This document shows, piece after piece, positions 14,065-64,000 of a stretch of DNA of 64,000 bases. A program made the position numbers and the translations under genes. The stretch is taken from contig JACPHO010000001.1 of assembly GCA_016188545.1 (NCBI GenBank), forward strand, positions 419,324 through 483,323, read 5' to 3'. This stretch comes from Candidatus Shapirobacteria bacterium (GTDB lineage: Bacteria > Patescibacteriota > Microgenomatia > UBA12405). The notes beneath the pieces were generated by a model. That model was not told the DNA's origin. It searched no databases and was given only the letters and a program-made list of their open reading frames with translations. The stretch's first letter is position 1; each line of letters opens with the position of its first letter.

Positions 14065-14793
14065 ATGTCAGATTACATTCTCGAAAGTCTTTCTGTATTT
14101 TTTCCTTGTTACAACGAAGAAAAAAATATTGAATCAACTTTCAACAAAGCCCTGCCAATATTACAAAAAGTAGCTAAAAACTGGGAAATAATTCTAGTTA
14201 ATGATGGTTCAAAAGATAATACCCTCAAGATCCTTCAAAAACTTAAAAAAGCCCATCCCCAGCAAGTTACGATCGTCAACCATACCCAAAACAGGGGATA
14301 CGGAGCTGCCTTCAAATCAGGTGTCTATACCGCTAAATATCCCTGGATTACCTTTACTGACGCTGATGGCCAGTTTGACTTTAATGAAATACATAAACTA
14401 GTTGCCACTCAGAAAAAAACCAATGCTGACCTGGTCATTGGTTTTTATAACGTCAGACAAGTCCCTGCATTCCGTATTTGGGGTTCAGCAGCCTGGCAAC
14501 TAGCCGTATTTATTCTATTTGGCCTAAGAGTCAAAGATATTGACTGTGGATTTAAGCTTTTTCGCAAAGAAGTCATCGACACCATTCCTCATCTGGAAGC
14601 TGAAAGGGGACCATTTATTTCTTCTGAATTCCTTCTAAAAGCCAAAAAGAAGAAATTTAAAATTGTCGAAATAGGTGTCACTCACTTTAGTCGCCAAGCC
14701 GGTAATGGTACTGGAGCCAACTTTGATGTAGTTTTAGCCGGACTAGTAGATCTTCTTCGTCTTTGGTTCAAAGTCAACTTCACCAAATCATAA
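14065..14793 (+). CDS. GT2, DPM1-like polyprenol-phosphate glycosyltransferase
   Basis: PCYNEE, VNDGSKD, NRGYGAA, TDADGQF, DIDCGFKLF. Confidence 0.88.
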   Translation: MSDYILESLSVFFPCYNEEKNIESTFNKALPILQKVAKNWEIILVNDGSKDNTLKILQKLKKAHPQQVTIVNHTQNRGYGAAFKSGVYTAKYPWITFTDADGQFDFNEIHKLVATQKKTNADLVIGFYNVRQVPAFRIWGSAAWQLAVFILFGLRVKDIDCGFKLFRKEVIDTIPHLEAERGPFISSEFLLKAKKKKFKIVEIGVTHFSRQAGNGTGANFDVVLAGLVDLLRLWFKVNFTKS

Positions 14794-14794
14794 A

Positions 14795-16234
14795 ATGATA
14801 TTTTTACGTAAAAATTGGCAAATAATCTTAATTATTCTAATAGCCAGTTTTGTTAGATTTTTCCATCTTTACGATTACGCTGAGTTCCTGGGTGACCAAG
14901 GCCGAGACGTAGTCATTGTTAGAGAGTTTCTCAGACACGGTAATCTTTTCTTTATCGGCCCTCAAACTAGTATTGGCAATATGTATTTGGGACCATTTTA
15001 TTACTATTTGTTTGTCGCCCCCGGACTTATTCTTAGCTGGTTCAATCCAATTGGACCTGCCATTGTAGTGGCTATTCTCGGGGTACTTACTGTCTATCTT
15101 GTCTATACTTACTCCTTAGAATGGTTTGACCATAAAACAGCCATGATCGCCAGTCTTATCTTTGCCCTATCGCCAGTAGTAATTAAATATTCCACATTTT
15201 CGTGGAATCCCAATGTCATGCCTCTGTTTTCGCTATTATTCATCCATTATCTTCTAAAATCTCGATATATTTTAGCCACCATCGCCTTCATAATTTGTCT
15301 CAATGCCCACTTTTTAGCGCTTCTACTTCTACCAGTAGGTTTTATCATTGTTGTTTTCAAAAAACCATTTCCTTACCGTGCCCTAATACTGCCATTTGTC
15401 ATTCTTTTGGCTTCGTTTATACCGCAGTTACTTTTTGATTTTAAACACCAAGGTCAAAATATTAATGCTTTTGTTTCCTTTTTTACCAAAAGAGAAACTA
15501 CTATTAACCTAAAACCATATAAAGCCATACCGCTAATGGTGCCTCTTTTTAATCAAGTTACCACTAGGCTAGTTGCCGGAAAAGACGTAATTGTCGGCTA
15601 CTTTATCAGCACTATCTTTGGCTCAACTTTGATATTTATTCTATACCAGCAGTTTAAAAAACGTAAATTCGACCCTCATTTTCTAATGCTTTCCTCCTGG
15701 CTATTGATTGGTCTAGTAGGATTAGCGTTGTACAAACAGCACATCTATGATCATTACTTTGGCTTTTTGTATCCCGCTATCATTATTCTTTTCGCCTACC
15801 TAATCACACGTTTGCCAAAGTTTTTATCAACTATCATCACCATCTTTGTAGTCATTATATCTTTAGTTCAAAACCCGTTACGCTGGTCACCACCGCGTCA
15901 ATTATGGACAACTCAAGAAATTACTAAGCAAATAGTTGCTTCTTCAGAAAATAAACCATTCAACTTCTCCCTATTAGCAAAAATGAACTATGATCCTGGT
16001 TACCGCTATTTCTTTTCCGAATCAAATGCACCAGTCAGATTACTTCAAGATGAAATAACCGAACAACTCTTTGTCGCTTGTGAGCCTTTTCAAATGGACT
16101 GTAACCCCATCAATAACCCTGAGTGGGGGATAGCTGCCTTTGGCTGGGCTAAAATTGACAAAGAGTGGGAAGTGAATGGAATAAAAATATTCCGTTTAGT
16201 CCACAACCAAACAGGTGAAAAAGTAATAAATTAG
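14795..16234 (+). CDS. GT-C (ArnT/PMT-like) membrane glycosyltransferase
   Basis: TM1-R..loop GDQGRD, GPQTSIG..YLGPFYYY, WNPN, many TMs. Confidence 0.82.
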   Translation: MIFLRKNWQIILIILIASFVRFFHLYDYAEFLGDQGRDVVIVREFLRHGNLFFIGPQTSIGNMYLGPFYYYLFVAPGLILSWFNPIGPAIVVAILGVLTVYLVYTYSLEWFDHKTAMIASLIFALSPVVIKYSTFSWNPNVMPLFSLLFIHYLLKSRYILATIAFIICLNAHFLALLLLPVGFIIVVFKKPFPYRALILPFVILLASFIPQLLFDFKHQGQNINAFVSFFTKRETTINLKPYKAIPLMVPLFNQVTTRLVAGKDVIVGYFISTIFGSTLIFILYQQFKKRKFDPHFLMLSSWLLIGLVGLALYKQHIYDHYFGFLYPAIIILFAYLITRLPKFLSTIITIFVVIISLVQNPLRWSPPRQLWTTQEITKQIVASSENKPFNFSLLAKMNYDPGYRYFFSESNAPVRLLQDEITEQLFVACEPFQMDCNPINNPEWGIAAFGWAKIDKEWEVNGIKIFRLVHNQTGEKVIN

Positions 16235-16248
16235 TCTTTCTCGACTAG

Positions 16249-17721
16249 TTACTCAGTGTATCCAAGCAATGGATCAAGCTGAGCAGAAGTATTTTTACAG
16301 TCCGCTTCGGTTGCCTTATAGTCACCCGCCACTGGCTTCAAAACTCCAAATCTGCCAAAACTCACCGGCTTTTCATAACGACTAAGTTGCCAAGGAATAG
16401 GAATGTTATATACTGGTACACCCGGTGAACCGGGCTTTACAATATCTACCCCGTAGTACCAAAAGAGATATCTAAACCCAACTCCAACCCCAGGATCCGC
16501 AATGAAGTTAACCGCGATACAGTTATAGTTGTTTTTTTCCTTATCTGCTTTTATATATTCAACTACCTGTCTTCTGTATAAATACGATTGATCTTCATCA
16601 GTTTTAGTAACCAGCCAATAGCTATTAATTACCAGATACAGAAATATCACTAGTATCGCTGCGTTTTTTGTAATAACTTTAGCCAAAAATATTGCCATTA
16701 CCGCAATCACTATTGGTACTGTGTTAGTAAAATAATACTCTGAAACTACTCTTTTTGACACAAACTGTGCGACCATTATAAGTCCAATCCATCCCCACAT
16801 TAAGCCAACTTCCTGCCATTTGATATGTTTTTTCCAAGTTAGGTAACCACAAATTGCGATAAACATCAGCCAGTAAACATAGTTGTTACTGTATTTAAGA
16901 TCAAAAACAATTCGTTGTTGGATCTCCCTACCCGAGGCTTCGATCACCTTTATTAACTTCATTTTACCAGTCGGTGCTCCTATATCCTTTTGAGTTGAGG
17001 CAGCCATGCTCCTAACTTGTGACCAATTATGTTTTAGTTCAAATACAAAGAAAGGAGAAATCGTTATCAAAAATATCAAGATACCTCCCCACACATAACG
17101 ACTAATATTTTTATCAAACAAACTTGAAAATTTATTCTTTCCGACAAAAAATGCCAGAATTGGTAAAGGAACAATCGGCAGCAAAGCTATGTGCAACTGC
17201 CAAATGAACCCAACTAAAAATCCATATATTGGAAGCCATTTCAAATTACCTTTTCCTAATTCCATAATTACTCCCCAAAACCAGATCGACCAGGTTAGGG
17301 TGGGCAGTGTTGGTACTGACCATCTATCAAACCTCGCTATTCCAAACGAAAATGCGTATATTGCTGCAGCTATTAGTCCCGCTCTCATACCCCAATTTCT
17401 TTTAATCACCCAGTAGATACTAACTATATTAAAAATAGAAATTAGTGTTATTGGCACAATAGCCGATAGGGGATTCATCCCAAAAAGTCGATAAAATATC
17501 GCCATGACATAGTAATAAAAACTACCTATAAAAACCCCATCCACACTTGTAATTTGCCCAACTAATCTTTGATGACCGTTAACGATAATGTCTTTAGCAA
17601 TCCACGAATATAGATCCTGATCATGAGCAAAAAAGAAAGATCTTTCAAAAAAAAGCCACCTCATTAATAACCCGGCCCCCAACAAGACTACCCAAATTGG
17701 TACTCTGAACCTAGCTTCCAT
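16249..17721 (-). CDS. GT-C (ArnT/PMT-like) membrane glycosyltransferase
   Basis: HDQDLY, GQITSVDGVFIGSFYYY; paralog of 14795. Confidence 0.8.
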   Translation of the reverse strand: MEARFRVPIWVVLLGAGLLMRWLFFERSFFFAHDQDLYSWIAKDIIVNGHQRLVGQITSVDGVFIGSFYYYVMAIFYRLFGMNPLSAIVPITLISIFNIVSIYWVIKRNWGMRAGLIAAAIYAFSFGIARFDRWSVPTLPTLTWSIWFWGVIMELGKGNLKWLPIYGFLVGFIWQLHIALLPIVPLPILAFFVGKNKFSSLFDKNISRYVWGGILIFLITISPFFVFELKHNWSQVRSMAASTQKDIGAPTGKMKLIKVIEASGREIQQRIVFDLKYSNNYVYWLMFIAICGYLTWKKHIKWQEVGLMWGWIGLIMVAQFVSKRVVSEYYFTNTVPIVIAVMAIFLAKVITKNAAILVIFLYLVINSYWLVTKTDEDQSYLYRRQVVEYIKADKEKNNYNCIAVNFIADPGVGVGFRYLFWYYGVDIVKPGSPGVPVYNIPIPWQLSRYEKPVSFGRFGVLKPVAGDYKATEADCKNTSAQLDPLLGYTE

Positions 17722-17751: not shown

Positions 17752-18513
17752 ATGACTTCAATCAGTATTGTAATGTCCTGTTACAACGAAGAAAATAATC
17801 TCAAGAGAGGTGTTCTTTCCGAATTAAACGATTACATTTCTAGGTCAAATCTAAACTGGGAAGTTGTTATAACTAATGATCTCTCTACTGACAAAAGCTA
17901 CGAATTATTACTTAGTTTTGCCAAAAAAAACAAAAGCTTTCGAATTTTAAACCTTGAAAAAAAAGGCGGCAAACCAGGTGGTATCTGGAATAGCATCCAA
18001 GCCGCCAAATATCCCTACGTTCTCATGACTGATATTGATCAGTCCACCCCAATTAGTGAATTCGATAAGTTTCTTCCATTTATCAAAGACAGCGATATCG
18101 TCATCGGATCTCGAGGACTTCATCGTAATGGCAATTCGTTTTTAAGGAAAATTGGAGGCCCTGTTTTTCTTACACTACGGCGACTAGTCATTCTTCCCAA
18201 CATTATCGATACCCAGTGCGGCTTTAAACTCCTCAAAACCGAAGTAGCCAAAGAACTGTTTCCCCACCTGCAATTTTTTCAGAAAGAAAAAAACCCGACT
18301 GGTTGGAGAGTTTCTGCATTCGACGTTGAGCTATTATTTATGGCTCGCAAATGGGGTCATCCAATCAAAGAAGTTGAAGTTGACTGGCGTAACGAAGATA
18401 CCAGTAATACCAAGGGAGACGATACTTCCCGCTACAAGAAAGAGTCAGTCCAAATGATTAGGGAAATCATTAGGGTCAAGCGTAACGACATCTTGGGCAA
18501 ATATGAAAAATAA
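17752..18513 (+). CDS. GT2, dolichyl/polyprenyl-phosphate glucosyltransferase-like (Alg5/AglJ-like)
   Basis: CYNEE, TDIDQSTP, IGSRG, DTQCGFKL, FDVELLF. Confidence 0.87.
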   Translation: MTSISIVMSCYNEENNLKRGVLSELNDYISRSNLNWEVVITNDLSTDKSYELLLSFAKKNKSFRILNLEKKGGKPGGIWNSIQAAKYPYVLMTDIDQSTPISEFDKFLPFIKDSDIVIGSRGLHRNGNSFLRKIGGPVFLTLRRLVILPNIIDTQCGFKLLKTEVAKELFPHLQFFQKEKNPTGWRVSAFDVELLFMARKWGHPIKEVEVDWRNEDTSNTKGDDTSRYKKESVQMIREIIRVKRNDILGKYEK

Positions 18514-19966
18514 ACTAATACCTGAACTGGGGATAGTTCTATTAATCTCCACTCTCTATTTATTCACACGGGTTCAGTCTCTAACCATTTTACCTGTTTT
18601 TGGCGACGAAGCCATCTATCTTCGCTGGTCACAAATTATCAAAAGCGTCGATACCTTACGTTTTGTTCCCGTAACTGACGGCAAACAACCACTTTTCATG
18701 TGGATCACCGTGGCTTTCTTTAAAATATTTTCTGACCCGTTATTCTCAGGACGCTTATTATCTGTTTTTTCCGGACTATTAAACTTACTCAGTCTTTATT
18801 TTATTGGCCGGTTTTTTATATCTCGAAAAGTAGCCATTATCTCTTCGATTGTTTACCTCATATTACCTTTTACATTTTTTTTCGACAGACTTTCTCTTCC
18901 CGACAGCCTTTTGTCGGCCCTGGGTTCACTGTCCTTATTATTTAGTATTTTACTAGCCAAGTATCCTCGGCTTGATCTAGCCATGATCTTAGGAATAATT
19001 CTTGGTTTATCTTGGCTGACTAAGTCACCGGCGATATATTTTATAACTTTGTCAGCCTTCACTTTTATTCTCTACAATCCTAAAAACATTAAAAAAATCT
19101 ACCTACCAGCTGTTTCAGTCGTGTTCTCATTTGTAATCTACAACATTCTCCGACTTGGTCCTCAGTTTTCGCAGATTAATATTAGAAACCGTGACTATGT
19201 TTGGGGAATTTCTGATATAATCTCGCACCCACTCGATCCTTTTATTCCCCACCTTCGAGACTTATTTGTTTTGTATTCACAATATATTTCTATTCCTTTA
19301 TTAATTGTTTCACTACTGGGAATTTTAATTTATCGCCAAAAACTAAATCACAAAATATTTTTCATTCTTTTATCCTGGTGGGTTCTCCCACTTGTAGCCA
19401 ACATGATGTTTGCCAAAGTTTTCACTGGTAGGTACATTCTTTTCACCGTTCCACCTCTAATCATTCTCATGTCCATCGGACTAAGTCAGTTTAAATTGTC
19501 ACTAAAATATACACTCGTCGTTCTTACAGTACTATGTACTCCCGGACTTATGTTTATTTGGAACATGTCAACCAACCCATTCATAGTCAAGCTCTATAGC
19601 ACTGAAAGTGGTTATGTCTCAAGCTGGACATCGGGCTGGGGGATTCAGGAAGCTTCCACTTATCTTATTAGTCGTTCACACAGTGCCAACGTCATTGTTG
19701 GTACCGAAGGCTATTTTGGCACTCTCCCCGACGGACTTCAAATCTACACAAACCAAATACCTCAGCTTACTGTCTTCGGTGTGGGACTAGATCTAACTTC
19801 AGTTCCTGAAAAACTTATTGATGCTCGTAATCACGGAGACGAAGTCTATATGTTATTTAACCGTTCCCGACTAAAACTCACCCCAAGTGATTCATCTCTG
19901 CTCACAAAAGTATCCTCCTATTCCAAGCCGGATGGAGATGAACTACTATTATTAAAGCTAAACTAA
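18503..19966 (+). CDS. GT-C (ArnT/PMT-like) membrane glycosyltransferase
   Basis: PVFGDEAIYLRW, DGKQPLF, FDRLSLPD, LTKS, RY. Confidence 0.82.
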   Translation: MKNKLIPELGIVLLISTLYLFTRVQSLTILPVFGDEAIYLRWSQIIKSVDTLRFVPVTDGKQPLFMWITVAFFKIFSDPLFSGRLLSVFSGLLNLLSLYFIGRFFISRKVAIISSIVYLILPFTFFFDRLSLPDSLLSALGSLSLLFSILLAKYPRLDLAMILGIILGLSWLTKSPAIYFITLSAFTFILYNPKNIKKIYLPAVSVVFSFVIYNILRLGPQFSQINIRNRDYVWGISDIISHPLDPFIPHLRDLFVLYSQYISIPLLIVSLLGILIYRQKLNHKIFFILLSWWVLPLVANMMFAKVFTGRYILFTVPPLIILMSIGLSQFKLSLKYTLVVLTVLCTPGLMFIWNMSTNPFIVKLYSTESGYVSSWTSGWGIQEASTYLISRSHSANVIVGTEGYFGTLPDGLQIYTNQIPQLTVFGVGLDLTSVPEKLIDARNHGDEVYMLFNRSRLKLTPSDSSLLTKVSSYSKPDGDELLLLKLN

Positions 19967-19967
19967 T

Positions 19968-21659
19968 ATGTTCACCCGCCTCAAGCCACTAATAATCCTG
20001 CTAGTTCTAATAATCCCCAGTATATCTTTCTTTTTTAAACCAGGCGTTTATTGGAACATGCACGATGATATGCAGCTTATTCGACAGTTAGAAATGGAAA
20101 AATGCATCCTCGACGGACAAATTCCTTGTCGTTGGACACCTGACCTTGGCTACGGTTACGGATACCCCTTGTTCAACTTCTACCCACCACTCCCATATTT
20201 TGTTGGTGAGGTGTTTCGAGTATTAGGTTTTTCATTTATATCCACTATCAAACTAACCGCCGCTCTCCAATTCATTGTCGCCGCCTTAGGAATGTATTTA
20301 CTTGTCACTTCTATTTTTGGACCCATCTCCGGACTCGTAGCTTCGCTTCTATACAATTACGCACCGTATCACTCTGTAAACGTTTATATAAGAGGAGCAA
20401 TGAACGAAGCCTGGGCAGCAACATTTTTCCCTTTTATCTTCTACTTTGGACGCCTTGCAATCATCAAAAAAAATCTTTTCTCCCACCTTCTCCTAACCCT
20501 TTCCTATAGTCTATTACTCCTATCTCACAACCCTATGGCGCTTACATTCAGTCCGTTTTTGGGTATCTGGCTACTTTACTGGCTTATCAGCAGTTATGGC
20601 TTTACCAAAGAAACTTTTCTTAGGACTTTTACACTCGGCATATCACTTATTTTTTCAGTTTTAATTTCCGGATTCTTCACCTTCCCAGTCCTATTTGAAT
20701 CTAAAATGGTGCAAATAGAATCCATGTTTCAAAACTACTACCACTTCTCAGTCCATTTTGTCTCTTTTTATCAATTATTTATTAGCAATTTTTGGGGCGA
20801 TGGGCCATCGGTTTGGGGGACTACCGATGGAATGTCATTTTCAGTTGGGTACCTCCATTGGGGTATTGCTCTAATTTCCTTACTTCTAGTATTTTTTAAT
20901 TATCTAAAAACTCGTCGCATCACCTGGCTACCAATCATATTATTTATCGCCTCCTTTTTTAGCATATTCTTAGTCCATGAGCGATCCACACCTATTTGGA
21001 GCGTTATAGGTATCATCCAAAAAGTCCAGTTCCCATGGCGTTTTCTAAACATCTCAGCATTTCTACTGTCCCTACTTGCCGGCACTGTCATTTCACTACT
21101 CCCTCAAAAACCACACATTCGACTTTTTAGTTTATTCACCATCACTCTGCTCATATTTGCTTTATATCAGCCATTATTTACACCTGTCACTTCCGGGCCT
21201 ATAAACGATGACCAGAAATTCGCAGGTAAAGCCTGGGTAAATCAAGTTACCGGAGGTATCTACGATTATCTACCCAAAACTGCTCTTACAGCAGCTAAAG
21301 CACCAGCAAAAGAATATGTTGATGAAATCAACCTCCTTCCAGATGAATATACGTTATCTGGTCAAAAGAAAGGTACTGACTGGATGTTTTTTAATACTAG
21401 CCTAAAAAAACCAGCTAAAGTTACCTTACCTGTTCTTTACTTTCCAAACTTTGTTTTACTCGTTGACAACATCACTACAAGCATCAGCCCTGAATCATCC
21501 CTCGGAAGAATTACTTTTGAATTAACTCCCGGAGATCATCAAGTATATCTAAAACTTCATGACACTCCTGTTAGAACTACCTCTAATATTTTATCCTTAT
21601 TTTCCATACTTCTTTTTTCAAGTCTACTGTTCACCACCCTATGGAAATCCAAGAAGTAG
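19968..21659 (+). CDS. PTPS-related/YfhO-like GT-C membrane protein
   Basis: HDDMQ, GQIPCRW..DLGYGYGYPLFNFYPPL, RGAMNE, QFPWRFL, C-terminal beta domain. Confidence 0.8.
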   Translation: MFTRLKPLIILLVLIIPSISFFFKPGVYWNMHDDMQLIRQLEMEKCILDGQIPCRWTPDLGYGYGYPLFNFYPPLPYFVGEVFRVLGFSFISTIKLTAALQFIVAALGMYLLVTSIFGPISGLVASLLYNYAPYHSVNVYIRGAMNEAWAATFFPFIFYFGRLAIIKKNLFSHLLLTLSYSLLLLSHNPMALTFSPFLGIWLLYWLISSYGFTKETFLRTFTLGISLIFSVLISGFFTFPVLFESKMVQIESMFQNYYHFSVHFVSFYQLFISNFWGDGPSVWGTTDGMSFSVGYLHWGIALISLLLVFFNYLKTRRITWLPIILFIASFFSIFLVHERSTPIWSVIGIIQKVQFPWRFLNISAFLLSLLAGTVISLLPQKPHIRLFSLFTITLLIFALYQPLFTPVTSGPINDDQKFAGKAWVNQVTGGIYDYLPKTALTAAKAPAKEYVDEINLLPDEYTLSGQKKGTDWMFFNTSLKKPAKVTLPVLYFPNFVLLVDNITTSISPESSLGRITFELTPGDHQVYLKLHDTPVRTTSNILSLFSILLFSSLLFTTLWKSKK

Positions 21660-41775: not shown

Positions 41776-41776
41776 A

Positions 41777-49001: not shown

Positions 49002-49002
49002 C

Positions 49003-51930: not shown

Positions 51931-51961
51931 TTTTATACTCCTATAAATATAGTATTAGTTT

Positions 51962-56686: not shown

Positions 56687-57792
56687 AAACTATCCTCCAC
56701 ATCACTCCATTTTTCCACCCCAATATTGGAGGGGTCGAAACTCATCTAGACGACCTTACCTATGAACTACACAAAAGGGGATACAAACAGATTGTTCTTA
56801 CTTATTCACCACTATCAACCATTGTTCCCTATCAAAAATCAGAGTTGTCGACCAACTTACTCATTCATCGTTTTTACCTACCTGGTCACAATTTATTTCA
56901 TTCTCTCGAAAAATTTCCTCTATTAAATTTTTTATACATCACCCCTTGTTTACTTTTTCACTCCCTTATTTGGCTTTTGGTCAATCACCCTCACATCGAC
57001 ACCATCCATTCTCACGGTCTAAACTCCGCTCTAATCGGCAATATTATAAAAAAATTCCTGAGAATTCCCAAACATATCACCTCTATCTACTCTACCTATG
57101 ACAATGTTCCCTTAAATTCAACTACTACAAAATTATTTGTCCACATTCTCAACAATACCGACAAAGTTCTTACTCAGTCAGACCAATCAGTTATACAACT
57201 CAGAAATTTAGGAGTTATCAAAAATAAAATCGCCAGATATTATCATTGGATTGATATTACACGCTTTAAACCAATTCCAAAAAAATCATCCAAATTTTCT
57301 GTATTATTTATCGGTCGTCTAATTCCTCAAAAAAACTCCATAACTCTTGCCACATTAGCCCCAGAATTTACTCAGATAAGATTTGATTTTATCGGTACCG
57401 GTCCTGAATTAGAAAATCTCAAAACTTTAGCCAAAAAATATTCCAATATAAATTTAATTGGCGATGTTCCTTATAAAAACTTGCCACAGTTTTATCAACA
57501 AGCAACTGTTTTTTGTATGCCCTCTACCTATCACGAAGGCTGGGGTAGGGTACTTGCCGAATCAGTTGCCTGTGGCACCCCCGTGATTTGTTCAAACTTA
57601 GGCGGCACCACTGAAGCCGTCGACAGTTCTGTAGCAATTATAGTACCTCCCACTTCAGATCATTTCAAAAAATCCATCAAAAAACTATTTGAAAATCCGT
57701 CCCAACTCCGAAAACTTAGATACAATTGCCATACATACGCCAAAAAACACTATTCCTCAGATAATGTTACTTACATCACCCGACACTATTAA
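56674..57792 (+). CDS. GT4 glycosyltransferase
   Basis: GGVETH, HSHG, FIGRLIPQK, EGWGRVLAE. Confidence 0.9.
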   Translation: MASIKTILHITPFFHPNIGGVETHLDDLTYELHKRGYKQIVLTYSPLSTIVPYQKSELSTNLLIHRFYLPGHNLFHSLEKFPLLNFLYITPCLLFHSLIWLLVNHPHIDTIHSHGLNSALIGNIIKKFLRIPKHITSIYSTYDNVPLNSTTTKLFVHILNNTDKVLTQSDQSVIQLRNLGVIKNKIARYYHWIDITRFKPIPKKSSKFSVLFIGRLIPQKNSITLATLAPEFTQIRFDFIGTGPELENLKTLAKKYSNINLIGDVPYKNLPQFYQQATVFCMPSTYHEGWGRVLAESVACGTPVICSNLGGTTEAVDSSVAIIVPPTSDHFKKSIKKLFENPSQLRKLRYNCHTYAKKHYSSDNVTYITRHY

Positions 57793-58412
57793 ACTTTGCT
57801 TGCCTCAATATACAAACCCAGCTCTTGGTGAATCGGTAAGTCAAGAATATCAACATCCTTCATCGAGCTTTTTCTGTATGCCGAATTTTTTATTTTAGTA
57901 AACCCAACTTTATTAATCAGTCGACTAAGGTTTTCAAAATCATACATCCATTGGTGACCTCTGATTGCCGATTTACCAAGACCCATGTTTTTGTCTTTAT
58001 CAAATCCATAAAACTCTCTACAAAAAACATCCGCGTCACCATTTTTTAAGTATTTATCCATTATCTTTTTTAGGTCTGGGACAACCAAACGAATTTTTCC
58101 ATTTTGTTTCAGTACCCGCAAACACTCTTTTAAGAGTTCCTCGGCTTCATATTTTTCAAGATGCTCTAAAAAATTTGAACTATAAATCCAATCAACACTA
58201 TTTGCCATTAAAGGAATTCCTTTTCGAAGATCATGTAATACTACTTCCCTCCAATCTCTTTGATAACTCTTGTCAAGAATACCCAACGACACCAATAATC
58301 TTCGTAATAGTGGAATCTTAGCCAAAAATGGCAACCATCCCCAGTCATAGTTAATCCACCCCTGTACCCCGTCTGGCCCCGAACCCAAGTTAATTCTCAC
58401 TTCCCCTTTCAT
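57789..58412 (-). CDS. Class I SAM-dependent methyltransferase (Methyltransf_11-like)
   Basis: NLGSG, HDLRKGIP, SSNFLEHL, RVLK.NG.IRLVVPD. Confidence 0.85.
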   Translation of the reverse strand: MKGEVRINLGSGPDGVQGWINYDWGWLPFLAKIPLLRRLLVSLGILDKSYQRDWREVVLHDLRKGIPLMANSVDWIYSSNFLEHLEKYEAEELLKECLRVLKQNGKIRLVVPDLKKIMDKYLKNGDADVFCREFYGFDKDKNMGLGKSAIRGHQWMYDFENLSRLINKVGFTKIKNSAYRKSSMKDVDILDLPIHQELGLYIEASKV

Positions 58413-58431
58413 AGCTATATAATATCAGAGT
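58413..58431. promoter_or_regulatory. Overlapping bidirectional -10 elements in a 19-nt intergenic gap
   Basis: Minus strand TGaTATTAT, 6 nt before ATG 58412; plus strand TATAAT (58418-58423), 8 nt before ATG 58432. Confidence 0.6.
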
Positions 58432-59625
58432 ATGTCTCTTCCCAAGCTTCTCGTAGTCTGCCACACCAATTTGGGTACCAGCCTCAGCGGAGGAGACAGG
58501 ATTTTTCTAAAACTTATCAAATATTGGCAAAAGTATTTTGAAATAACCGCCCTAGCATCCCCAGAAGCCAAAAAACTTATTCAAAGAAATAAGTTGAATA
58601 TACATATCATCAGTACTACCCATGTCCCAACAATCACTAATTTATCGACTTTCCACTTAGTCCTACACCATACCATTAGATTCCTGACCGCGATTACTTT
58701 CTGTCTTACTCACCCTCCTCTTTTCCAAAAACACACCCACGTCTACACATCTTCTGATTTTTACGGTGACTTTACTTTCGGATTCTTATCCAAATTATTT
58801 AATGGCAAAATTACTTGGTATTGTGGTTACTATCTTTTAGCCCCATTTCCAACAGATACCAATTCTCCTTACCTCACCAACCACCATCCAATTCGTGGAC
58901 TTATCTACTACTTAGCCCAAAGACCAACCATTCTACTTGCTCGACTATTAGCAGATTATGTATTTGTCACTTCCAAACCAGATATTGTCCCATTTAAAAA
59001 TAACCGGTTACCTTCATCAAAAATTATTATCGTCCAGGGCGGTGTCTACATCCCTACCAGCAAAACTATCAAAACACTTCTACCCATTACCAAGAGGGCA
59101 TATGACGGATTTTACCTTGGTCGTCTCCACAACCAGAAAGGTGTTATGGAAATGATCGATATCTGGTCTTTAGTTACCAAAAAAATACCCGCAGCTCGTT
59201 TAGTCATCGTCGGTGACGGAGAGTTAATGTCCCAAATGACCCAGAAAATTGATGCATTAAAACTTCAAAAAAATATTAATGTCATCGGTTTTTTGGTTGG
59301 TCCCAAAAAATTTGCTCTCATCAAAAATAGTAAAATAGTTCTTCACCCTGCCACCTATGACAGTGGGGGAATGGCCGCAGCAGAAGCCATGGCATGGGGA
59401 CTTCCTGGTGTCTCTTTTGACCTCCCATCGCTAAAGACATACTATCCCAAAGGCATGGTCAAAGTACCACTTTCAGATCTAAACAAGTTTGCCAACTTAG
59501 TCGTCAAACTTTTGACAAATAAAGAGTTCTACAAAAAACATTCCCACGACGCCCGGGATCTAACTATTGAAAATTGGAACTGGAAAACCCGGTTTGACAA
59601 TATCTACAAAAAAATCTCAGTGTAA
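58432..59625 (+). CDS. GT4 glycosyltransferase
   Basis: SGGDR, LGRLHNQKG, IVGDG, DSGGMAAAEAMAWGLP. Confidence 0.88.
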   Translation: MSLPKLLVVCHTNLGTSLSGGDRIFLKLIKYWQKYFEITALASPEAKKLIQRNKLNIHIISTTHVPTITNLSTFHLVLHHTIRFLTAITFCLTHPPLFQKHTHVYTSSDFYGDFTFGFLSKLFNGKITWYCGYYLLAPFPTDTNSPYLTNHHPIRGLIYYLAQRPTILLARLLADYVFVTSKPDIVPFKNNRLPSSKIIIVQGGVYIPTSKTIKTLLPITKRAYDGFYLGRLHNQKGVMEMIDIWSLVTKKIPAARLVIVGDGELMSQMTQKIDALKLQKNINVIGFLVGPKKFALIKNSKIVLHPATYDSGGMAAAEAMAWGLPGVSFDLPSLKTYYPKGMVKVPLSDLNKFANLVVKLLTNKEFYKKHSHDARDLTIENWNWKTRFDNIYKKISV

Positions 59626-59710
59626 ATACACAGACTTAAAGATTATTTATCTAAAACGCTTATCTCTTACGCTCTAACGTTCTAATGATCTAAAGTTCTA
59701 TCTCGTTCTA

Positions 59711-61159
59711 CTATGCTGTCATCGCCCGATAATACGCTTTCCCAAATGCAATTAGCTTTACCCCAAACGAGTTCCAACCATCTCGCCGAACAATCTCCAT
59801 AACCGTCTCTGCCACCCCCCTTCTTCTGACTCTAGTCTTTAAATAAAGCCAAGCAGCTTTTGGCAAGTTACTCTCAATATCTCGTTTCTTGTAGTCAGGG
59901 TATTCATAGACAGCTGTATTCCCATTGTATTTTCTCCAATCATCGGTCAACAGATTTCCCCGACTCTTCAATAAGTTATAAAAAGGTGTCCCTGGCTGAG
60001 GTGTGCACACCGATGCCTGAAAATCCCACAGCAGCCCTTCTTTTGTTAATTTCTCTATCAAATCCAATGTCTTCCCATCCTCTGTCAGGTTCGAATCAGG
60101 AGAACCAAATGTAAATGTTGCATACATTCTCATCCCCACTTTCTTAGCCATCTTAAGAACTTCAATAATTCGGTCAACATTCACATTTTTTACCATTCCT
60201 AGGGCCGTCTTTACCGATGCTGTCTCAATCCCAATTCTAATTTTGTAATAACCAGCCTTTCTCATCATGGTCAGCATTTCCTCATCGAAAGTCCAATACC
60301 CACACATGGCATCATACTTTAGATCCTGCAATCCATTATCAATTATGGCTTGACACAGTTCCATGACAAACTTTTTGTTCGAATTATGATTTTCTTCATC
60401 AAAGAAAATCCCATCCATTTCCGGATATTTATTCTTAAGATATTTAATTTCATCGATTACATTTTGAACTTCTCGGACTCTAAAATTTGGTTTGCCATAA
60501 TAAGTTTGTCGAGCTACACAAAAGTTACAATTCATCGGACACCCACGGGTTGCAAAGAACTCAATTTCCTTATAGTCACAACCGCCAATTCGGGTATAGT
60601 TCATCCGACTGATATCATCGTCCTCAGGAAAGGGGAGTGTGTGTACATCTAAAAGTTCCTTTACTGGGTTAGGATAAATTCCGTCAATTGTTTTCGGCTT
60701 TTCACCACTAACCAGCTTGACTACAGCCGGTTCGTATTCCCCAGTTGCCACGTAGTCGACACCATCAGCCAACACTTCTTTTGGAAAAGCAGTCGGATGT
60801 TGACCACAAAAAATAATTTTTGTACCGTACTTTTCCTTAAACTTAAGAGCAAATCTAAGATCGTATTTATAGACAACCGATGATGTTTCAACCACCAGAT
60901 AATCAGGCATAAACTTTTTATACTTCTCAAAATATTCCTCGGCTGTTAGTTCTTCATAATTCCCATCTACCATTTTCACTTCCAAGTCTTTGTTTTGCTT
61001 TAACATCGATGACAGATATCCTAGCTCGTATGGATAAAAGTTAAACGATTTGGTTTTTCCAACACAAGTCGACCATCGAGAAGGAAATAAAATGTAATGA
61101 TTTCCATCATCATCTTTACCTACAGAGTTCGCTATCAACACTTTTGTCCTGGATTTCAT
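59711..61159 (-). CDS. B12-binding-domain radical SAM protein (HpnJ-like N-terminus)
   Basis: PSRWS...FYPYELGYL, CGQHPT, GEYE, RGCPMNCNFC, GIET, TPQPGTPFY. Confidence 0.9.
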   Translation of the reverse strand: MKSRTKVLIANSVGKDDDGNHYILFPSRWSTCVGKTKSFNFYPYELGYLSSMLKQNKDLEVKMVDGNYEELTAEEYFEKYKKFMPDYLVVETSSVVYKYDLRFALKFKEKYGTKIIFCGQHPTAFPKEVLADGVDYVATGEYEPAVVKLVSGEKPKTIDGIYPNPVKELLDVHTLPFPEDDDISRMNYTRIGGCDYKEIEFFATRGCPMNCNFCVARQTYYGKPNFRVREVQNVIDEIKYLKNKYPEMDGIFFDEENHNSNKKFVMELCQAIIDNGLQDLKYDAMCGYWTFDEEMLTMMRKAGYYKIRIGIETASVKTALGMVKNVNVDRIIEVLKMAKKVGMRMYATFTFGSPDSNLTEDGKTLDLIEKLTKEGLLWDFQASVCTPQPGTPFYNLLKSRGNLLTDDWRKYNGNTAVYEYPDYKKRDIESNLPKAAWLYLKTRVRRRGVAETVMEIVRRDGWNSFGVKLIAFGKAYYRAMTA

Positions 61160-61161
61160 TG

Positions 61162-62004
61162 TTAAATCTTACCACTTTTTCCCTCAACCTCAACTACTCC
61201 ATGTTGAGCCACTAAGACCGAAAAGATCCAAAGTATTGGGATAGTTATAGTTTGAAATACAATCATTGTTGGAATAGTTAGTTTAAACCCAAACTTCGAC
61301 AATATTGAGTAGCCCATCACCTGACGATATTCACCAAAATAATTTCTGCTCTTAATATCTTTAAAACCTACATCTTCAAACATCTTGAGTAGACCCGCTT
61401 CACTAAACAAAGTCTGATGATTCGGATAATCCAAATGGTACCAATTAGCACCCGCCAATTTTGCCTCCCACGACTCAACATTTGGCACCCTGACAACTAG
61501 TCTACCCGTAGGTGATAATATCCCTAAAATTTTTCTAATATATTCTGCTGGTTTTTCGATATGTTCCAAAACATGATACATCACCACCAACTCAAACTTT
61601 TCTTTAACTTTATCAATATCGTCAAACAGATGATCTTTTCCTAAGACGTTTTCTATTTGCCTCCTGGCATACTTTGACTTTTCTACACCAAAGACCCGAT
61701 ATCCCATAGATTTAAGAGCTTTTAAAAATTTACCTTCACCAAAACCAATTTCTAAAACCTTATCATTTTTTGACAAACTAAGAGTTTGATATCTATCCCA
61801 AAATGCGAATTTGTCAACAATATTCATTAGCCATCCACTTTTACTCCTACCATAATATTCCTTATCATAGACACTTTTCACCACACCGCTCATCGACACA
61901 CTTCTACACTGTAAGCACTCCACAAAACTTGAATCTATCTTCCACTGACGAGTATTATCTGACTCACATACCAGACATTTTCTTTGCTTCTTTTGTGTAG
62001 CCAT
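61162..62004 (-). CDS. Class I SAM methyltransferase with N-terminal zinc ribbon
   Basis: CLVC...CLQC, VLEIGFGEG, YHVLEH, VRVPN, PNH..LFS. Confidence 0.85.
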   Translation of the reverse strand: MATQKKQRKCLVCESDNTRQWKIDSSFVECLQCRSVSMSGVVKSVYDKEYYGRSKSGWLMNIVDKFAFWDRYQTLSLSKNDKVLEIGFGEGKFLKALKSMGYRVFGVEKSKYARRQIENVLGKDHLFDDIDKVKEKFELVVMYHVLEHIEKPAEYIRKILGILSPTGRLVVRVPNVESWEAKLAGANWYHLDYPNHQTLFSEAGLLKMFEDVGFKDIKSRNYFGEYRQVMGYSILSKFGFKLTIPTMIVFQTITIPILWIFSVLVAQHGVVEVEGKSGKI

Positions 62005-62845
62005 CTGATTTCCACTTAACAACTAACCACTGCATAATTATGTTCGGATAATTGTCAGTTGTTTTAACTATCCACTCCATTATATTTCGAATACGATTCA
62101 TTATTCGCCATTCCAATATCAAGATAATAAATCTACCCAATTTATTTTTAATTAAAAAAGGTAAAAAATTCACCGGCAATTTAGATTTTAAATAATATAA
62201 ACCACGTCCGTGACTAATAAATCTGTTTTTAATATCCTCAAATTTTAATTGATGGAAATGCCAAACTTTAGCGTTGCTATCAAAATATAATTTTAGACCA
62301 TTTATTTTGGCACGATAGGCAAACTCAATATCTTCCCACGCTGCTGTCGGAAATTCTTCACAAAACCACAATTCATTTTTTATTACAAAATTTCTCTTCA
62401 TTGAAAAGTTGCACGTCCACAAATAATACCAAGGTATTCTTCGAATTTTATCGGTATATTTAAATCGATAATTAAAATGTAGCCCACTTTGTCCCACCAA
62501 CCATTTCATCGCATTTATTTTGATTGTCTCAGGGTGATTTTCTGTCAATCCTACCATCCCCGCCGATTCTGATTTATGCCTACTATGAAAATCTAAGTGG
62601 GATTTTATAAACCCAATTTCTATAAAACTATCATCATTTAAAAACAGTAAATATTTTCCCCTTGACCTTTTTATCGCTTCATTTCTAGCCTTTGCGGGTC
62701 CATTATTACCAATTACTATTACGATTTCGTCACGATCTTTGTCAATCTGTGCTTCTAAAAGTGCCAGGGCCTCTTTTAATATCTCTTGTCGCTTAAGTGT
62801 CGGGATAATAATACTAAACCTTACTCTCCTCTGGCTACTTTCCAT
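61964..62845 (-). CDS. GT2 glycosyltransferase
   Basis: SIIIPT, GPAKARN, FLNDD, TCNFS, WEDIEFAYR. Confidence 0.87.
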   Translation of the reverse strand: MESSQRRVRFSIIIPTLKRQEILKEALALLEAQIDKDRDEIVIVIGNNGPAKARNEAIKRSRGKYLLFLNDDSFIEIGFIKSHLDFHSRHKSESAGMVGLTENHPETIKINAMKWLVGQSGLHFNYRFKYTDKIRRIPWYYLWTCNFSMKRNFVIKNELWFCEEFPTAAWEDIEFAYRAKINGLKLYFDSNAKVWHFHQLKFEDIKNRFISHGRGLYYLKSKLPVNFLPFLIKNKLGRFIILILEWRIMNRIRNIMEWIVKTTDNYPNIIMQWLVVKWKSDGYTKEAKKMSGM

Positions 62846-63999
62846 ATCTTTAGAATTATTTTTATGACTATCACTACCGGTGCCGAAATAATCGGTGATT
62901 GCTTCATTATAAACGCCGTGCCCAGTAACATTTTTCGAAGTACTATCATGTCAAAAGAGGATAGATACTTAGTCCTCATGTTACTAATATTTCCATTAAA
63001 TTTATTCCAATCAAAATCTTGAATTAGTCCCGACTTCATGGCATCAGCAAACATTTCCGTCCCAGGGTATGGAGTAATTGTGCTGAACCCTACCGATTCT
63101 GGGTTGAGTCTAACCAAATAATCAAATGTGTTTGACATTGTCTTCAAATTATCATCAGGCAACCCGATTATCATCAAAAAGTGAAGTTTCACTCCAACTT
63201 TTTTGGCAACTTCTCGAATATTTTGAATCGATTCCAAAGTCACTCCCGGCTTACCTTGGTAGATAATCAATTCTTGGTCAAGAGTCTCTATCCCCACATT
63301 AATCCCCAAACACCCAGCCTTTTTCATTATTTTTAAAAGCTCTGGAGTTAATACATTTATCCGTGTCTCACACCACCACCTAATCTTCAGTTTATTTTTT
63401 ATTATCAAGTTACAGAGTTCCTCAGTTCTTTTATTATCCAGAGTAAAAGTTGCATCACGAAATAGCACACTTTTAATTCCCAGTTTACTAATTACTTTTA
63501 ACTCTTTAATTACCCGTTCATTACTCATAGCTCTCCAAGTCTTTCCCTGGACTAGGGGATAAGGACAGTAAAATCCACATGGGTAGGGGCAGCCTCGACT
63601 TGTCTGCATAGTCGTCACCACCCCAGGAAGTAGTACATAGCGATACCGGTCAATTTTGGTTTCCTCTCGAGCTGATAGTGGCAGATCATCGAGATTTTTA
63701 ATCCTATCCTCCACAGTCATTGGCGACAGCCCAACTTTTTCATTATTCCAGTAGACACAGCCCGTTCTTCTTTTTCCACTCAAAAATTCTTCGATGGTTA
63801 AGTCACATTCACCAAAAATTATTAACTCAGCCCCAGAATCCTTAAGCACCCTTTCCAATATTTGTTTATAGTTTATCCCGGTCTTAAAAATTACCCGAAG
63901 ACCTGGGATATTTTCCATCAACTTTCTAGCAAATTCTGTATCTTCCGACACGGTTGGTAATGCCAAACCTGAGATTACAACTTCAATCTTTTTGTTTTT
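62821..63999 (-). CDS. B12-binding-domain radical SAM protein (5' end beyond the window)
   Basis: Frame is open to the window end; GE motif, TSRGCPYPCGFYC, GIET, IIGLP, TPYPGT. Confidence 0.88.
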   Translation of the reverse strand, partial: KNKKIEVVISGLALPTVSEDTEFARKLMENIPGLRVIFKTGINYKQILERVLKDSGAELIIFGECDLTIEEFLSGKRRTGCVYWNNEKVGLSPMTVEDRIKNLDDLPLSAREETKIDRYRYVLLPGVVTTMQTSRGCPYPCGFYCPYPLVQGKTWRAMSNERVIKELKVISKLGIKSVLFRDATFTLDNKRTEELCNLIIKNKLKIRWWCETRINVLTPELLKIMKKAGCLGINVGIETLDQELIIYQGKPGVTLESIQNIREVAKKVGVKLHFLMIIGLPDDNLKTMSNTFDYLVRLNPESVGFSTITPYPGTEMFADAMKSGLIQDFDWNKFNGNISNMRTKYLSSFDMIVLRKMLLGTAFIMKQSPIISAPVVIVIKIILKIWKVARGE

Positions 64000-64000
64000 T

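Follow-up and report, generated by a model that had tools for sequence, protein, structure and literature searches.

The window analysed here, 64,000 nucleotides of a metagenome bin placed closest to Ca. Shapirobacteria (G000; 92.6% complete, 4.4% contamination, genome ~1 Mb), carries from position 14,065 onwards a glycan locus that crosses the window edge and ends at ~110,850 (Table 1). The locus spans 97 kb, or 9.9% of the assembly; this ultra-small bacterium devotes about a tenth of its assembled genome to one surface-glycan cluster. A first-pass annotation of the window had proposed a locus of at least 50 kb in a Microgenomates-type host, which agrees with the placement and understates the extent. 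Its tally of 12 GT2, 4 GT4, 1 Wzx, 3 methyltransferase and 4 radical SAM genes was reproduced exactly with Pfam. As it had also stated, essentially every gene from 14,065 to the window end is glycan-related, and the only one without a family, 35432, is an outer domain split from GT-C 36000: it aligns at 29% identity (E 3e-10) with the C-terminal end of a 594-aa orthologue in G015 in which the two are fused. All 41 ORFs in this part are present and intact, and packing is tight (maximum gap 85 nt; 37/40 gaps ≤30 nt). Beyond the right edge, the locus contributes seven GT2 and seven GT4 genes, together with Wzm/Wzt, ManC, a phosphoglycosyl transferase for initiation, a protein with Wzy_C and genes for O-acetylation. 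Because its 19 GT2 and 11 GT4 genes in total equal or exceed the ~20 GT-C genes, nucleotide sugars are as much a basis of the locus as lipid-linked sugars are; its initial description as built on lipid-linked donors fits the accompanying polyprenol-phosphate-sugar synthases and leaves out this other half.

Table 1 Genes of the locus and its left flank (positions >64,000 are extended window coordinates, loci L001-L003)
Feature	Position	Strand	Evidence or remark
LCP (LytR-CpsA-Psr) glycopolymer transferase	9102..10124	+	PF03816 E 1e-17; five genes upstream of locus
GT2, predicted polyprenol-phosphate-sugar synthase, DPM1/ArnC-like	14065..14793	+	orthologue in G004, G015, G033
GT-C, conserved first gene behind synthase	14795..16234	+	profile matches, paralogy
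GT-C, PMT_2 domain, paralogue of 14795	16249..17721	-	PF13231 E 4e-10
GT2, predicted polyprenol-phosphate-sugar synthase	17752..18513	+	Pfam, NCBIfam below cut-off, GT2 tree
GT-C, PMT_2 domain	18503..19966	+	PF13231 E 1e-14
GT-C, PF10131 type	19968..21659	+	E 7e-8
Wzx-type flippase	21641..23098	+	PF13440 E 3e-45
GT-C without Pfam/NCBIfam model, GHD motif	23074..24759	+	AF2, Foldseek
Soluble nucleotide-sugar transferases: GT2 24756, 25688, 26623, 28576; GT4 27368	24756..29451	+	Pfam; collinear in G004, G015, G033
GT-C, ArnT-like clade	29448..30920	+	PF13231 E 4e-12
GT-C, YfhO family, 718 aa	30920..33076	+	homologues with PF09586
GT2	33073..33882	+	Pfam
GT-C, ArnT-like clade	33861..35438	-	Pfam, NCBIfam
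Membrane-anchored protein, 194 aa, split-off outer domain of GT87-like enzyme	35432..36016	-	fused orthologue in G015
GT-C, GT87/PIG-M/PIG-U-like	36000..37220	-	Atlas score 0.99
GT-C, ArnT-like clade	37222..38874	-	PF13231 E 2.6e-4 (below cut-off); paralogy
GT-C-fold protein, TM1 missing, first external loop shortened	38871..40151	-	AF2, fold search
Five tandem GT-C: 40183, 43344, 44914, 46490 ArnT-like; 41777 PF10131 type	40183..48094	+	Pfam
GT2 48084; GT4 48982; synthase-like GT2 50154; GT2 50953, membrane helices at C-terminus	48084..51930	+
Tailoring block: radical SAM, methyltransferases, GT2, GT4	51962..64000	.	Pfam; complete in G004, partial in G015 and G033
B12-type radical SAM (n=4), tailoring block	51962, 54136, 59711, 62821
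Methyltransferases (n=3), tailoring block	53385, 57789, 61162
GT2 and GT4, tailoring block	GT2 55643, 61964; GT4 56674, 58432
GT-C with TPR tail	64215		orthologues match PF13231
Wzm/Wzt	66959, 69613
MBOAT and AlgX	78323, 79639
Two further synthase-like GT2	83191, 88618
Three further GT-C	80917, 89369, 101201
LPG_synthase_TM	91948
Wzy_C	99822
ManC	107053
Initiating phosphoglycosyl transferase, WbaP/WcaJ-type	108137
DUF4012	108852		locus end 110,852

Gene order is mostly shared with three other genomes: of the 41 locus genes in the window, 36 have a reciprocal best match in G004, 31 in G015 and 20 in G033. Misassembly, which the first pass had named as a hazard, is therefore very unlikely. The right arm beyond the window is collinear in G004 and G033, with Wzm/Wzt inside a variable middle. 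No long near-identical repeats were found (the longest is 40 nt at 70%), and the GT-C paralogues of the locus share 20-36% identity and group with orthologues of other genomes in a quick tree. The four tandem ArnT-like copies are mutually 25-34% identical, and each tandem GT-C clusters with its own orthologue in G004 and G015. An artefact, whether contigs that were collapsed or joined as chimeras, tandem copies of recent origin, or membrane ORFs that are transporters or Wzy polymerases, would draw on the contamination of the bin, on the 5/16 membrane ORFs in the window without a Pfam match and on two beyond it (76581 and 84183) without assignment. Synteny in two single-contig genomes largely refutes this explanation, to which we give almost no credence.

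All 16 membrane ORFs in the window belong to a GT-C family or fold, 14 on profile, homologue or language-model evidence and two on AlphaFold models with fold search. Nine match PF13231/PF02366 (16249, 18503, 29448, 33861, 37222, 40183, 43344, 44914 and 46490; two score under the curated cut-off in the Pfam search), and a profile built from 14 paralogues has a single PDB match, ArnT (E 2e-9). ORF 14795, with 80 relatives kept in its homologue set, matches TIGR03663 (E 7.6e-5) and PF13231 (E 0.0037) and is a paralogue of 89369 as well as 16249. PF10131, which we take to be a GT-C family, is matched by 19968 and 41777 (the latter under cut-off), and this type is present in 68/81 class genomes. 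There was no direct Pfam match for 30920, which joins the YfhO family through homologues (PF09586 in most of 63 matches); 36000 carries 229/256 features of the GT87/PIG-M/PIG-U-like assignment. For the two folded ORFs, 23074 and 38871, the top structure matches are exclusively GT-C, so the non-GT-C folds foreseen as a refutation did not appear. The 38871 model (pLDDT 87; Z 14.0 to ALG12, 11.5 to ArnT) has no TM1 and only a minor part of the catalytic first external loop, and the protein is possibly a pseudo-enzyme or an altered enzyme. The predicted set of about 16 GT-C enzymes thus stands as to family or fold, with 15/16 looking like standard enzymes.

Members of the 23074 family have a GHD motif, and their outer domain resembles that of STT3/DPY19. 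Its model (pLDDT 93) matches DPY19 (Foldseek E 5e-8) and reaches Z 15-18 to Pmt4, STT3, AftA and ArnT. The family occurs in 68/121 class genomes and directly behind Wzx in 17/18 fetched loci, as well as in G000, G004, G015 and G033. In 18/68 genomes it lies within a frame of at least 1000 aa; all 18 fetched carry a long N-terminal extension, and a profile of 17 such sequences matches DUF3863/PDB 3lm3 (E 4e-5), a putative glycoside hydrolase or deacetylase, which points to a glycan substrate. In G000 itself no DUF3863-like domain was found.

The three proposed polyprenol-phosphate-sugar synthases (14065, 17752 and 50154) do group with DPM/GtrB-like enzymes in a small tree built from the GT2s of G000 and match the corresponding NCBIfam models under cut-off; 83191 is GtrB/PgfS-like (234.6 bits versus a cut-off of 500). 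Elsewhere G000 encodes one GT2-GtrA fusion (the sole GtrA domain found), a prenyltransferase scoring above the curated cut-off of the decaprenyl-phosphate phosphoribosyltransferase model (221.9 versus 207 bits), a WecA/TagO-like gene distinct from MraY (below cut-off) and a TagA-like gene. LCP is found in 81/81 and TagA/WecG in 74/81 class genomes, tallies that take in G000 and the unpublished G282; the LCP upstream of the locus, identically placed in G004 and G015, is a candidate for anchoring a glycopolymer to peptidoglycan. GDP-mannose is the only donor whose synthase is in the locus, and ManC is the single PF00483 nucleotidyltransferase found in this 92.6% complete genome. Relatives show the same expansion, with 7-21 PMT_2 matches per genome in 30/30 class members and a median of 3 outside the class. 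The giant GT-C-rich locus is an inherited Microgenomatia class-wide trait, not particular to G000, and no published description of one was found in the literature searched.

We favour, at somewhat better than even confidence, a monoderm-type wall polysaccharide pathway enlarged with many lipid-donor decorating GT-Cs, a subset of which perhaps O-glycosylates Pro/Thr-rich proteins. The product is likely a peptidoglycan-anchored polysaccharide with a backbone made inside the cell, then decorated or extended outside by the ~20 GT-Cs. The genes present, the assignment to GT-C by family or fold, the conservation of gene order and the expansion across the class were observed; the steps that follow are inferred. 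Undecaprenyl phosphate would be primed by 108137 or by the TagO/TagA pair, and soluble GT2 and GT4 enzymes would extend the primed carrier from nucleotide sugars, with radical SAM enzymes, methyltransferases and acetyltransferases modifying the sugars. Export would proceed by Wzx or Wzm/Wzt; Wzy_C may polymerise or ligate, and LCP may attach the polymer to peptidoglycan. Single sugars would be loaded onto polyprenol phosphate by five in-locus synthase-like GT2s, and by the GT2-GtrA fusion and the decaprenyl-phosphoribose synthase elsewhere, for use by three to four GT-Cs per donor at different positions or acceptors. A minority of GT-Cs (YfhO-type, PF10131-type and TPR-tailed) may instead O-glycosylate Pro/Thr-rich membrane proteins.

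The in-locus initiator, Wzx, Wzm/Wzt, Wzy_C and ManC, and LCP upstream in G000, G004 and G015, support the wall polysaccharide, as do near-universal LCP/TagA, the separate TagO-like gene, ArnT as sole PDB match, STT3 not being found in G000, the 23074 family behind Wzx with its DUF3863-like extension, and the decaprenyl-phosphate phosphoribosyltransferase. The contrast that the first-pass annotation drew with O-antigen and capsule clusters is not supported, given the genes beyond the window (initiator, Wzm/Wzt, Wzy_C, ManC), the upstream LCP, the TagO-/TagA-like genes and the search in which no STT3 was found. Against the wall polysaccharide, a GT-C fold is no guide to the acceptor that is used; the enzymes structurally closest to 23074 (Pmt4, STT3, DPY19) glycosylate proteins; the single PF00483 nucleotidyltransferase found does not account for non-mannose donors; twenty GT-Cs are many for one polymer's side chains; LCP, TagO and TagA lie outside the locus, Wzm/Wzt in its variable middle; and G000 has no DUF3863-like domain and is rich in Pro/Thr/Ser-rich proteins, a type of region that streptococcal YfhO-family enzymes glycosylate, going by the available part of PMC12041528.

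These proteins (27 versus 4-9 in shuffles; 24/27 with one or two membrane helices, odds ratio 21 for membrane-anchored) would be the targets if the locus served mainly protein O-glycosylation, the glycoprotein reading of the first-pass annotation, which we consider rather unlikely. A few GT-Cs would prime Ser/Thr of Pro/Thr-rich surface proteins or pilins and others extend stepwise, ER-like; as a variant, the Wzy_C protein would transfer a flipped oligosaccharide. A Pro-Thr triple repeat pattern gives 4-19 matches in each of 10/10 same-class genomes, but across 200 Patescibacteria its number of matches correlates only weakly with that of PMT_2 (rho 0.30, or 0.24 outside the class, related genomes not being independent), and outside the class 5/19 GT-C-rich genomes have no repeat match whereas 12/94 GT-C-poor ones have at least 10. 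Nor was a protein with full Pmt architecture seen; STT3 matches are partial and weak in 25/81 class genomes (best E 3.5e-11, positions 82-250 of 405), and LCP and TagA are near-universal. YfhO-type 30920 and GtrB/PgfS-like 83191 parallel the streptococcal GtrB-PgtC2 and Pgf systems as given in that part of PMC12041528, and 64215 shares its GT-C plus TPR layout with the TMTC O-mannosyltransferases, for which the accessible part of PMC7801869 notes prokaryotic homologues.

Improbable in our view is a membrane-anchored lipoglycan, like mycobacterial lipomannan/lipoarabinomannan, in which one lipid donor feeds many ordered GT-Cs on a glycolipid. The ~20 GT-Cs per 5-7 donor synthases, the GT87/PimE/PIG-M-like 36000, which in one other genome has a PIG-V-like relative close by, ManC as only PF00483 enzyme and the true decaprenyl-phosphoribose synthase are consistent with it; Wzx, Wzm/Wzt, Wzy_C and LCP better fit a carrier-linked wall polymer, and no DprE1-like gene was seen in G000, whose single FAD_binding_4 protein reads, in our judgement of its sequence, as MurB-like. 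CPR bacteria in general are not known to synthesise fatty acids, which also counts against a lipoglycan.

Among known systems, eukaryotic ER and archaeal N-glycosylation (STT3/AglB, ALG GT-Cs) share with 23074 the GT-C fold and the outer domain layout of STT3, AglB and DPY19, but a search of G000 found no gene of the STT3 family, and the 81 class genomes gave no more than partial cross-matches. Mycobacterial and corynebacterial arabinogalactan and lipoarabinomannan synthesis (Ppm1, UbiA/DprE, Emb, Aft, PimE, Mpt) likewise uses many GT-Cs on few lipid donors (Mycobacterium tuberculosis has ~17 GT-C genes), with a decaprenyl-phosphoribose synthase, a GT87-like enzyme and LCP anchoring. Unlike there, no Emb/Aft orthologues were identified here (fold likeness only, ~10% identity), DprE1 was not seen, and a single locus brings the genes together, in a genome roughly one quarter as large. 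Among sequence relatives of the main clade, which keeps the acidic motif behind TM1, only ArnT (GT83) has a solved structure, but scores of 19.6 versus 567 bits (ArnT equivalog cut-off) set the clade apart from lipid A aminoarabinose modification by ArnC/ArnT, and lipid A genes are absent from four candidate-phyla genomes in the part of PMC3812714 available. The streptococcal GtrB-PgtC2/Pgf systems, as far as that portion of PMC12041528 describes them, resemble the locus in a YfhO-family GT-C, a GtrB/PgfS-like synthase and membrane proteins with low-complexity linkers; they have one or two GT-Cs and one sugar type and their linkers are Thr/Ser-rich, whereas here most GT-Cs are ArnT-like and the Pro/Thr-rich linkers are candidate targets only. 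Gram-positive wall-polymer glycosylation (CsbB/GtcA/YfhO, GtsABC, CsdA-F, GacI/J/K/L; PMC8035078) matches in its GT2 synthase, flippase (GtrA or Wzx) and PMT_2-/YfhO-type GT-C, alongside TagO/TagA, ABC or Wzx/Wzy export, and LCP. For Firmicutes, one to three such GT-A/GT-C systems are tabulated per species (PMC8035078 Table 1), which bears out the early impression of a GT-C number far above the typical; here models are lacking for several of the families, a single GtrA domain was found, and ~20 GT-Cs draw on five in-locus synthases, all within one cluster of 97 kb in a genome of 1 Mb.

The glycosylation locus, for which the first-pass annotation had claimed at least 50 kb, extends past the window edge to a DUF4012 gene and totals 96.8 kb, or 9.9% of the assembly of the genome under study (G000; 981 kb, 8 contigs, 92.6% complete, 4.4% contaminated), with 83 ORFs of at least 140 aa. 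From position 14065 to the window end, 41 ORFs are intact and almost gapless, and Pfam reproduces the original tally of 12 GT2, 4 GT4, one Wzx, 3 methyltransferases and 4 radical SAM genes; the 16 membrane ORFs occupy 75% of 14795-48094. The sole gene of this stretch without a family, 35432, is a detached outer domain of 36000, and with the other genes placed in families, every gene of the stretch is thus tied to glycan synthesis. Locus totals are ~20 GT-C, 19 GT2 and 11 GT4; 80917 entered the GT-C count on a single weak BLAST match (E 8e-5), and two membrane ORFs, 76581 and 84183, were not counted. The profile-search total of 22 is no tally of GT-Cs, as self-seeded profiles match 76581, 80917 and 84183 trivially. 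A profile comparison of A3, the alignment of ArnT-like/PMT_2 GT-C paralogues, with A4 was set aside as circular because A3 contains two A4-family members.

Coordinates of the locus and of features beside it or elsewhere (values up to 64000 are window positions, larger plain values are extended coordinates beyond the window, L001 is the stretch past the window edge and C8 is the G000 contig, on which the window spans 419324-483323)
Feature	Coordinates	Remark
DUF11 protein	13343-13957	directly before the locus
Putative polyprenol-phosphate-sugar synthases (GT2)	14065, 17752, 50154, 83191, 88618	
Wzx	21641	flippase candidate
Three radical SAM proteins	51962-61159	B12-binding domains
Radical SAM gene	62821-64000	best NCBIfam match AprD4 diol dehydratase, 253 bits against a cut-off of 500
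TPR-tailed GT-C and NAD-dependent reductase/epimerase	L001:821-4913	beside the preceding gene; trio kept in G004
GT-C with TPR tail	64215	beyond window; orthologues match PMT_2
GT-C genes	89369, 101201, weakly 80917	beyond window
Wzm/Wzt; MBOAT and AlgX; two acetyltransferases; Wzy_C protein; ManC		beyond window
Small initiating phosphoglycosyl transferase		beyond window
7 GT2 and 7 GT4		beyond window
Variable middle	~66-92 kb	
RhuM/Fic gene and 119-aa ORF	L001:6090-7620 (68090-69620)	split the Wzm/Wzt pair
LPG_synthase_TM	91948	flippase candidate
Right arm	95488-108852	14 genes
DUF4012 gene	finishing at 110,852	locus end
927-aa polytopic membrane protein	L084:3758-6541	other G000 region
Operon-like group	L085:957-5415 (C8 ~29.5-33.9 kb)	other G000 region
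Second small glycan locus	L088:3017-15542 (C8 ~229-241.5 kb)	other G000 region
rmlC- and rmlD-like genes	C8 298866-300298	
1023-aa and 831-aa proteins	G033, L102-L103, 391762 and 405008	the former matches two GT-C profiles

All 16 membrane ORFs that had been named GT-C are GT-C by family or fold, on the basis of profiles, homologues, the Atlas and, for 2 of the 16, predicted structure. Nine match PF13231/PF02366 (PMT_2/PMT), and 14795, a paralogue of 16249, matches PMT_2 and TIGR03663 weakly. ORFs 19968 and 41777 match PF10131, 30920 belongs to the YfhO family via homologues, and 36000 is GT87/PIG-M-like in the Atlas. The two hardest cases, 23074 and 38871, were modelled and are GT-C by predicted fold. 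In the first external loop, TM1 is followed by an acidic motif of the DE/DQ/DM type in 11 of the 12 A3 rows from G000, 38871 left aside; the row of 101201 aligns poorly at this motif. ORFs 19968 and 41777 have DD, as read from the sequence. The best score against the ArnT equivalog (GT83) is 19.6 bits, below the cut-off of 567.

The 23074 model (104-row alignment, pLDDT 93) matches DPY19, STT3, AglB, PglB, AftA and ArnT (Foldseek E 5e-8 to 8e-4) and aligns with Pmt4 at Z 18.2 (rmsd 3.8 over 328 residues); a PDB sequence search with the family profile gave no match. H43-D44, the first-loop motif, is invariant in all 104 rows. The family is present in 68 of 121 genomes of the class (Microgenomatia) and lies directly after Wzx in 17 of 18 fetched loci, picked for frames of at least 1000 aa, the remaining one stopping at a contig edge. 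Forms of 1000-1160 aa were considered as Wzx-GT-C fusions and rejected, Wzx being a separate upstream gene. In their N-terminal extension, a helix (signal or anchor) is accompanied by a domain that matches DUF3863/PDB 3lm3 (E 4e-5), which suggests that these long forms may act on a glycan substrate; the extension is absent from G000, and Pfam at E 1 on the whole fusion proteins gave no useful family.

For the 38871 model (68 rows, pLDDT 87), the 20 best of 48,161 chains all have the GT-C fold, PIG-U among them, and ALG12 aligns at Z 14.0 (rmsd 4.5 over 331 residues). TM1 is missing in G000, as is most of the first external loop, which the family consensus (68 rows) reduces to a short PPxEEQ stretch. 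The protein is a possible pseudo-enzyme or, given the invariance of residues elsewhere, may have an altered active site. A further GT-C candidate is a 927-aa polytopic membrane protein elsewhere in G000, which has no Pfam match and whose gene has a GT2 and a polysaccharide deacetylase nearby.

Comparison across relatives, as the first-pass annotation had proposed, shows the locus to be real. Reciprocal best matches for the 41 window genes number 36 in G004 (same genus, single contig), 31 in G015 (same family) and 20 in G033 (same class, single contig), with order mostly kept. The right arm is kept at 14/14 genes in G004 and 13/14 in G033, and the locus middle varies between genomes. Among named relatives, those closest to ORF 14795 come from Ca. 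Shapirobacteria (~50-84% identity), followed by Woesebacteria and further Microgenomates (~37-46%), several rows bearing other depositor labels; G000 is accordingly taken to be a Shapirobacteria-like bacterium within Microgenomatia (Patescibacteria). Recent tandem duplication was rejected: paralogues are only 20-36% identical, there are no long repeats, and copies group with orthologues. In a quick tree with several long branches, 10 of 12 G000 copies pair with the orthologue of another genome. Uniqueness to G000 was likewise rejected, as PMT_2 matches number 7-21 in each of the 30 relatives from the order (median 15; G000 15). Ten genomes of the same class have at least 10-17 each, with up to 17 candidates scored per genome, and the median in 190 genomes of other classes is 3, with 19 of the 190 reaching at least 10. 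When all candidates were scored, two complete genomes of the class, G033 and G062, had 32 and 24 matches, mostly within one ~125-kb region. G033 also encodes, besides the 1023-aa protein, an 831-aa protein with a GT2-like start and a PF10131-type GT-C match; by their domain matches, both are apparent gene fusions inside the same locus. A RhuM/Fic gene and a small ORF divide the Wzm/Wzt pair in G000, and this site differs in G004 and G015. On the + strand, window positions 1-64000 show a GC skew below zero throughout (-0.06 to -0.32), regardless of gene strand, which may bias amino-acid composition.

Five locus GT2 cluster with a GT2-GtrA fusion that is encoded at another place on the contig, and match ArnC, PgfS, AglJ and PpgS models, all under equivalog cut-offs; they are synthase-like and predicted to make polyprenol-phosphate sugars. 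Judging from family and from these neighbours, the GT-Cs would use such sugars as donors. The flippase candidates include, beyond the two in the locus, one GtrA domain outside it. Also outside are at least four further PMT_2-like proteins, a decaprenyl-phosphoribose synthase (above its curated cut-off) that adjoins two such proteins, a WecA/TagO-like gene, TagA and a second LCP. ManC is the only PF00483 nucleotidyltransferase found in G000, which leaves most donor sugars without explanation; rmlC- and rmlD-like genes were recognized by sequence reading, and rmlA was not detected. The radical SAM gene at the window end and the adjacent reductase/epimerase are a possible sugar-deoxygenation pair, presumably by AprD3/AprD4 chemistry. 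Cobalamin synthesis is not expected in such small genomes, although three other radical SAM proteins carry B12-binding domains. In the second small glycan locus, the decaprenyl-phosphoribose synthase has as neighbours an Ig-domain protein and a Pro/Thr-rich one; FkbM, GT4, two GT-C-like genes, a PAP2 phosphatase and a membrane protein of the DUF2298/Chlor_Arch_YYY type are there as well. The operon-like group comprises an unassigned protein of 515 aa, a membrane protein of 505 aa whose first helices are followed by a DE motif, and the WecA/TagO-like gene.

On balance, we favour a wall-anchored polysaccharide, with many sugars added outside, as the product: the gene set fits Gram-positive wall-polymer pathways, LCP and TagA occur in the class, and STT3 was not found in G000. 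In the available part of one account (PMC8035078), such polymers are started by TagO/TagA or a different initiator, extended by cytoplasmic transferases, exported through an ABC or Wzx/Wzy system and attached by LCP, with outside decoration by a GT2 synthase, a flippase and a PMT_2- or YfhO-type GT-C. The pathway gene types (initiator, cytoplasmic glycosyltransferases, Wzx/Wzy or ABC export, LCP) are all in or near the locus. LCP is present in 81/81 and TagA in 74/81 class genomes (tallies counting G000 and the unpublished G282). The STT3 family has no match at E 0.1 in G000 (92.6% complete), and no full-length STT3 was found among 81 class genomes, 25 of which have partial weak matches only. 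That proteins are the acceptors is a real but weaker possibility, to which 27 Pro/Thr/Ser-rich G000 proteins (4-9 in shuffles), of which 24 are predicted to have one or two membrane helices, lend weight; so do streptococcal YfhO-family enzymes that glycosylate similar regions (PMC12041528, accessible text) and the TMTC-like layout of 64215, a GT-C domain followed by TPR repeats (PMC7801869, accessible text), although DUF1736 is not among the matches listed for it. Against this, Pro-Thr repeats and PMT_2 matches correlate only weakly across genomes, with clear exceptions, and the correlation was rejected as proof; its counts omit G199 (1 match), set five unlisted no-match genomes to 0 and score at most 17 PMT_2 candidates per genome. 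A lipoglycan product is possible but unlikely. Protein-, lipid- and glycan-acting GT-Cs lie within a few Z units of one another, so structural neighbours do not decide the acceptor. A DUF11 protein with hydrophobic N- and C-terminal segments, kept in G004 and G015, precedes the locus and has a PxTG end, which we take to be a sortase-like motif.

A bolder scheme, which we regard as doubtful, would be an ER-like outside assembly line: ~20 ancient, non-redundant GT-Cs would act in fixed order on a Wzx-flipped precursor, with the uncatalogued, Wzx-coupled 23074 family performing the transfer or ligation step, the conserved but loop-less 38871 serving as a non-catalytic subunit and the product coating both the wall and Pro/Thr-rich surface proteins. 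If true, this would be an undescribed bacterial envelope type, common to the whole class.

No account of this locus was found in searches of the open-access literature. The available parts of PMC3812714 and PMC12153355 describe candidate-phyla genomes as rich in glycosyltransferases, and that of PMC7143001, whose subject is strand disparity, reports 29 glycosyl transferase genes in one Microgenomates genome. The available main text of PMC6744442 does not contain 'glycosyl', and its supplementary table of 35 Microgenomates-enriched families could include these genes; the accessible portions of PMC11623550 and PMC12419801 hold nothing on such a locus. The locus is a real, under-described, class-wide feature that deploys known enzyme classes at unusual scale, and two of its GT-C families are uncatalogued. 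Genomes of ~1 Mb with sparse metabolism still give about one-tenth to one glycan cluster. The general remark that these genomes are 'glycosyltransferase-rich' is thereby resolved into testable parts, namely named donor synthases, a conserved core whose variable middle resembles a serotype region, the two GT-C families that are uncatalogued, and candidates for protein acceptors. Laboratory hosts can express these genes with no need to culture the organism; the genes would inform the envelope composition of Patescibacteria and could yield new lipid-donor glycosyltransferases.

Among known systems, the locus is likened by its genes (synthase, flippase, GT-C) to a transmembrane glycosylation system of the multi-component type, greatly enlarged and joined to a wall-polysaccharide pathway; described Gram-positive systems have fewer GT-C. 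Its GT-Cs are not ArnT equivalogs. Of what streptococcal O-glycosylation of disordered regions requires, G000 has the enzyme type, a YfhO-family GT-C, and candidate Pro/Thr/Ser-rich acceptors; the cross-genome link is weak. Mycobacterial arabinan synthesis calls for a DPPR synthase and a DprE1/DprE2 epimerase: the synthase passes its cut-off, and the only FAD_binding_4 match in this incomplete genome looks MurB-like. As to the likeness to eukaryotic ER, archaeal or mycobacterial glycan elaboration drawn in the first-pass annotation, the locus is not the OST pathway of N-glycosylation (STT3/PglB/AglB), no STT3 having been found in G000; its enzyme-to-donor ratio is similar to that of mycobacterial envelope synthesis, which employs ~17 GT-C.
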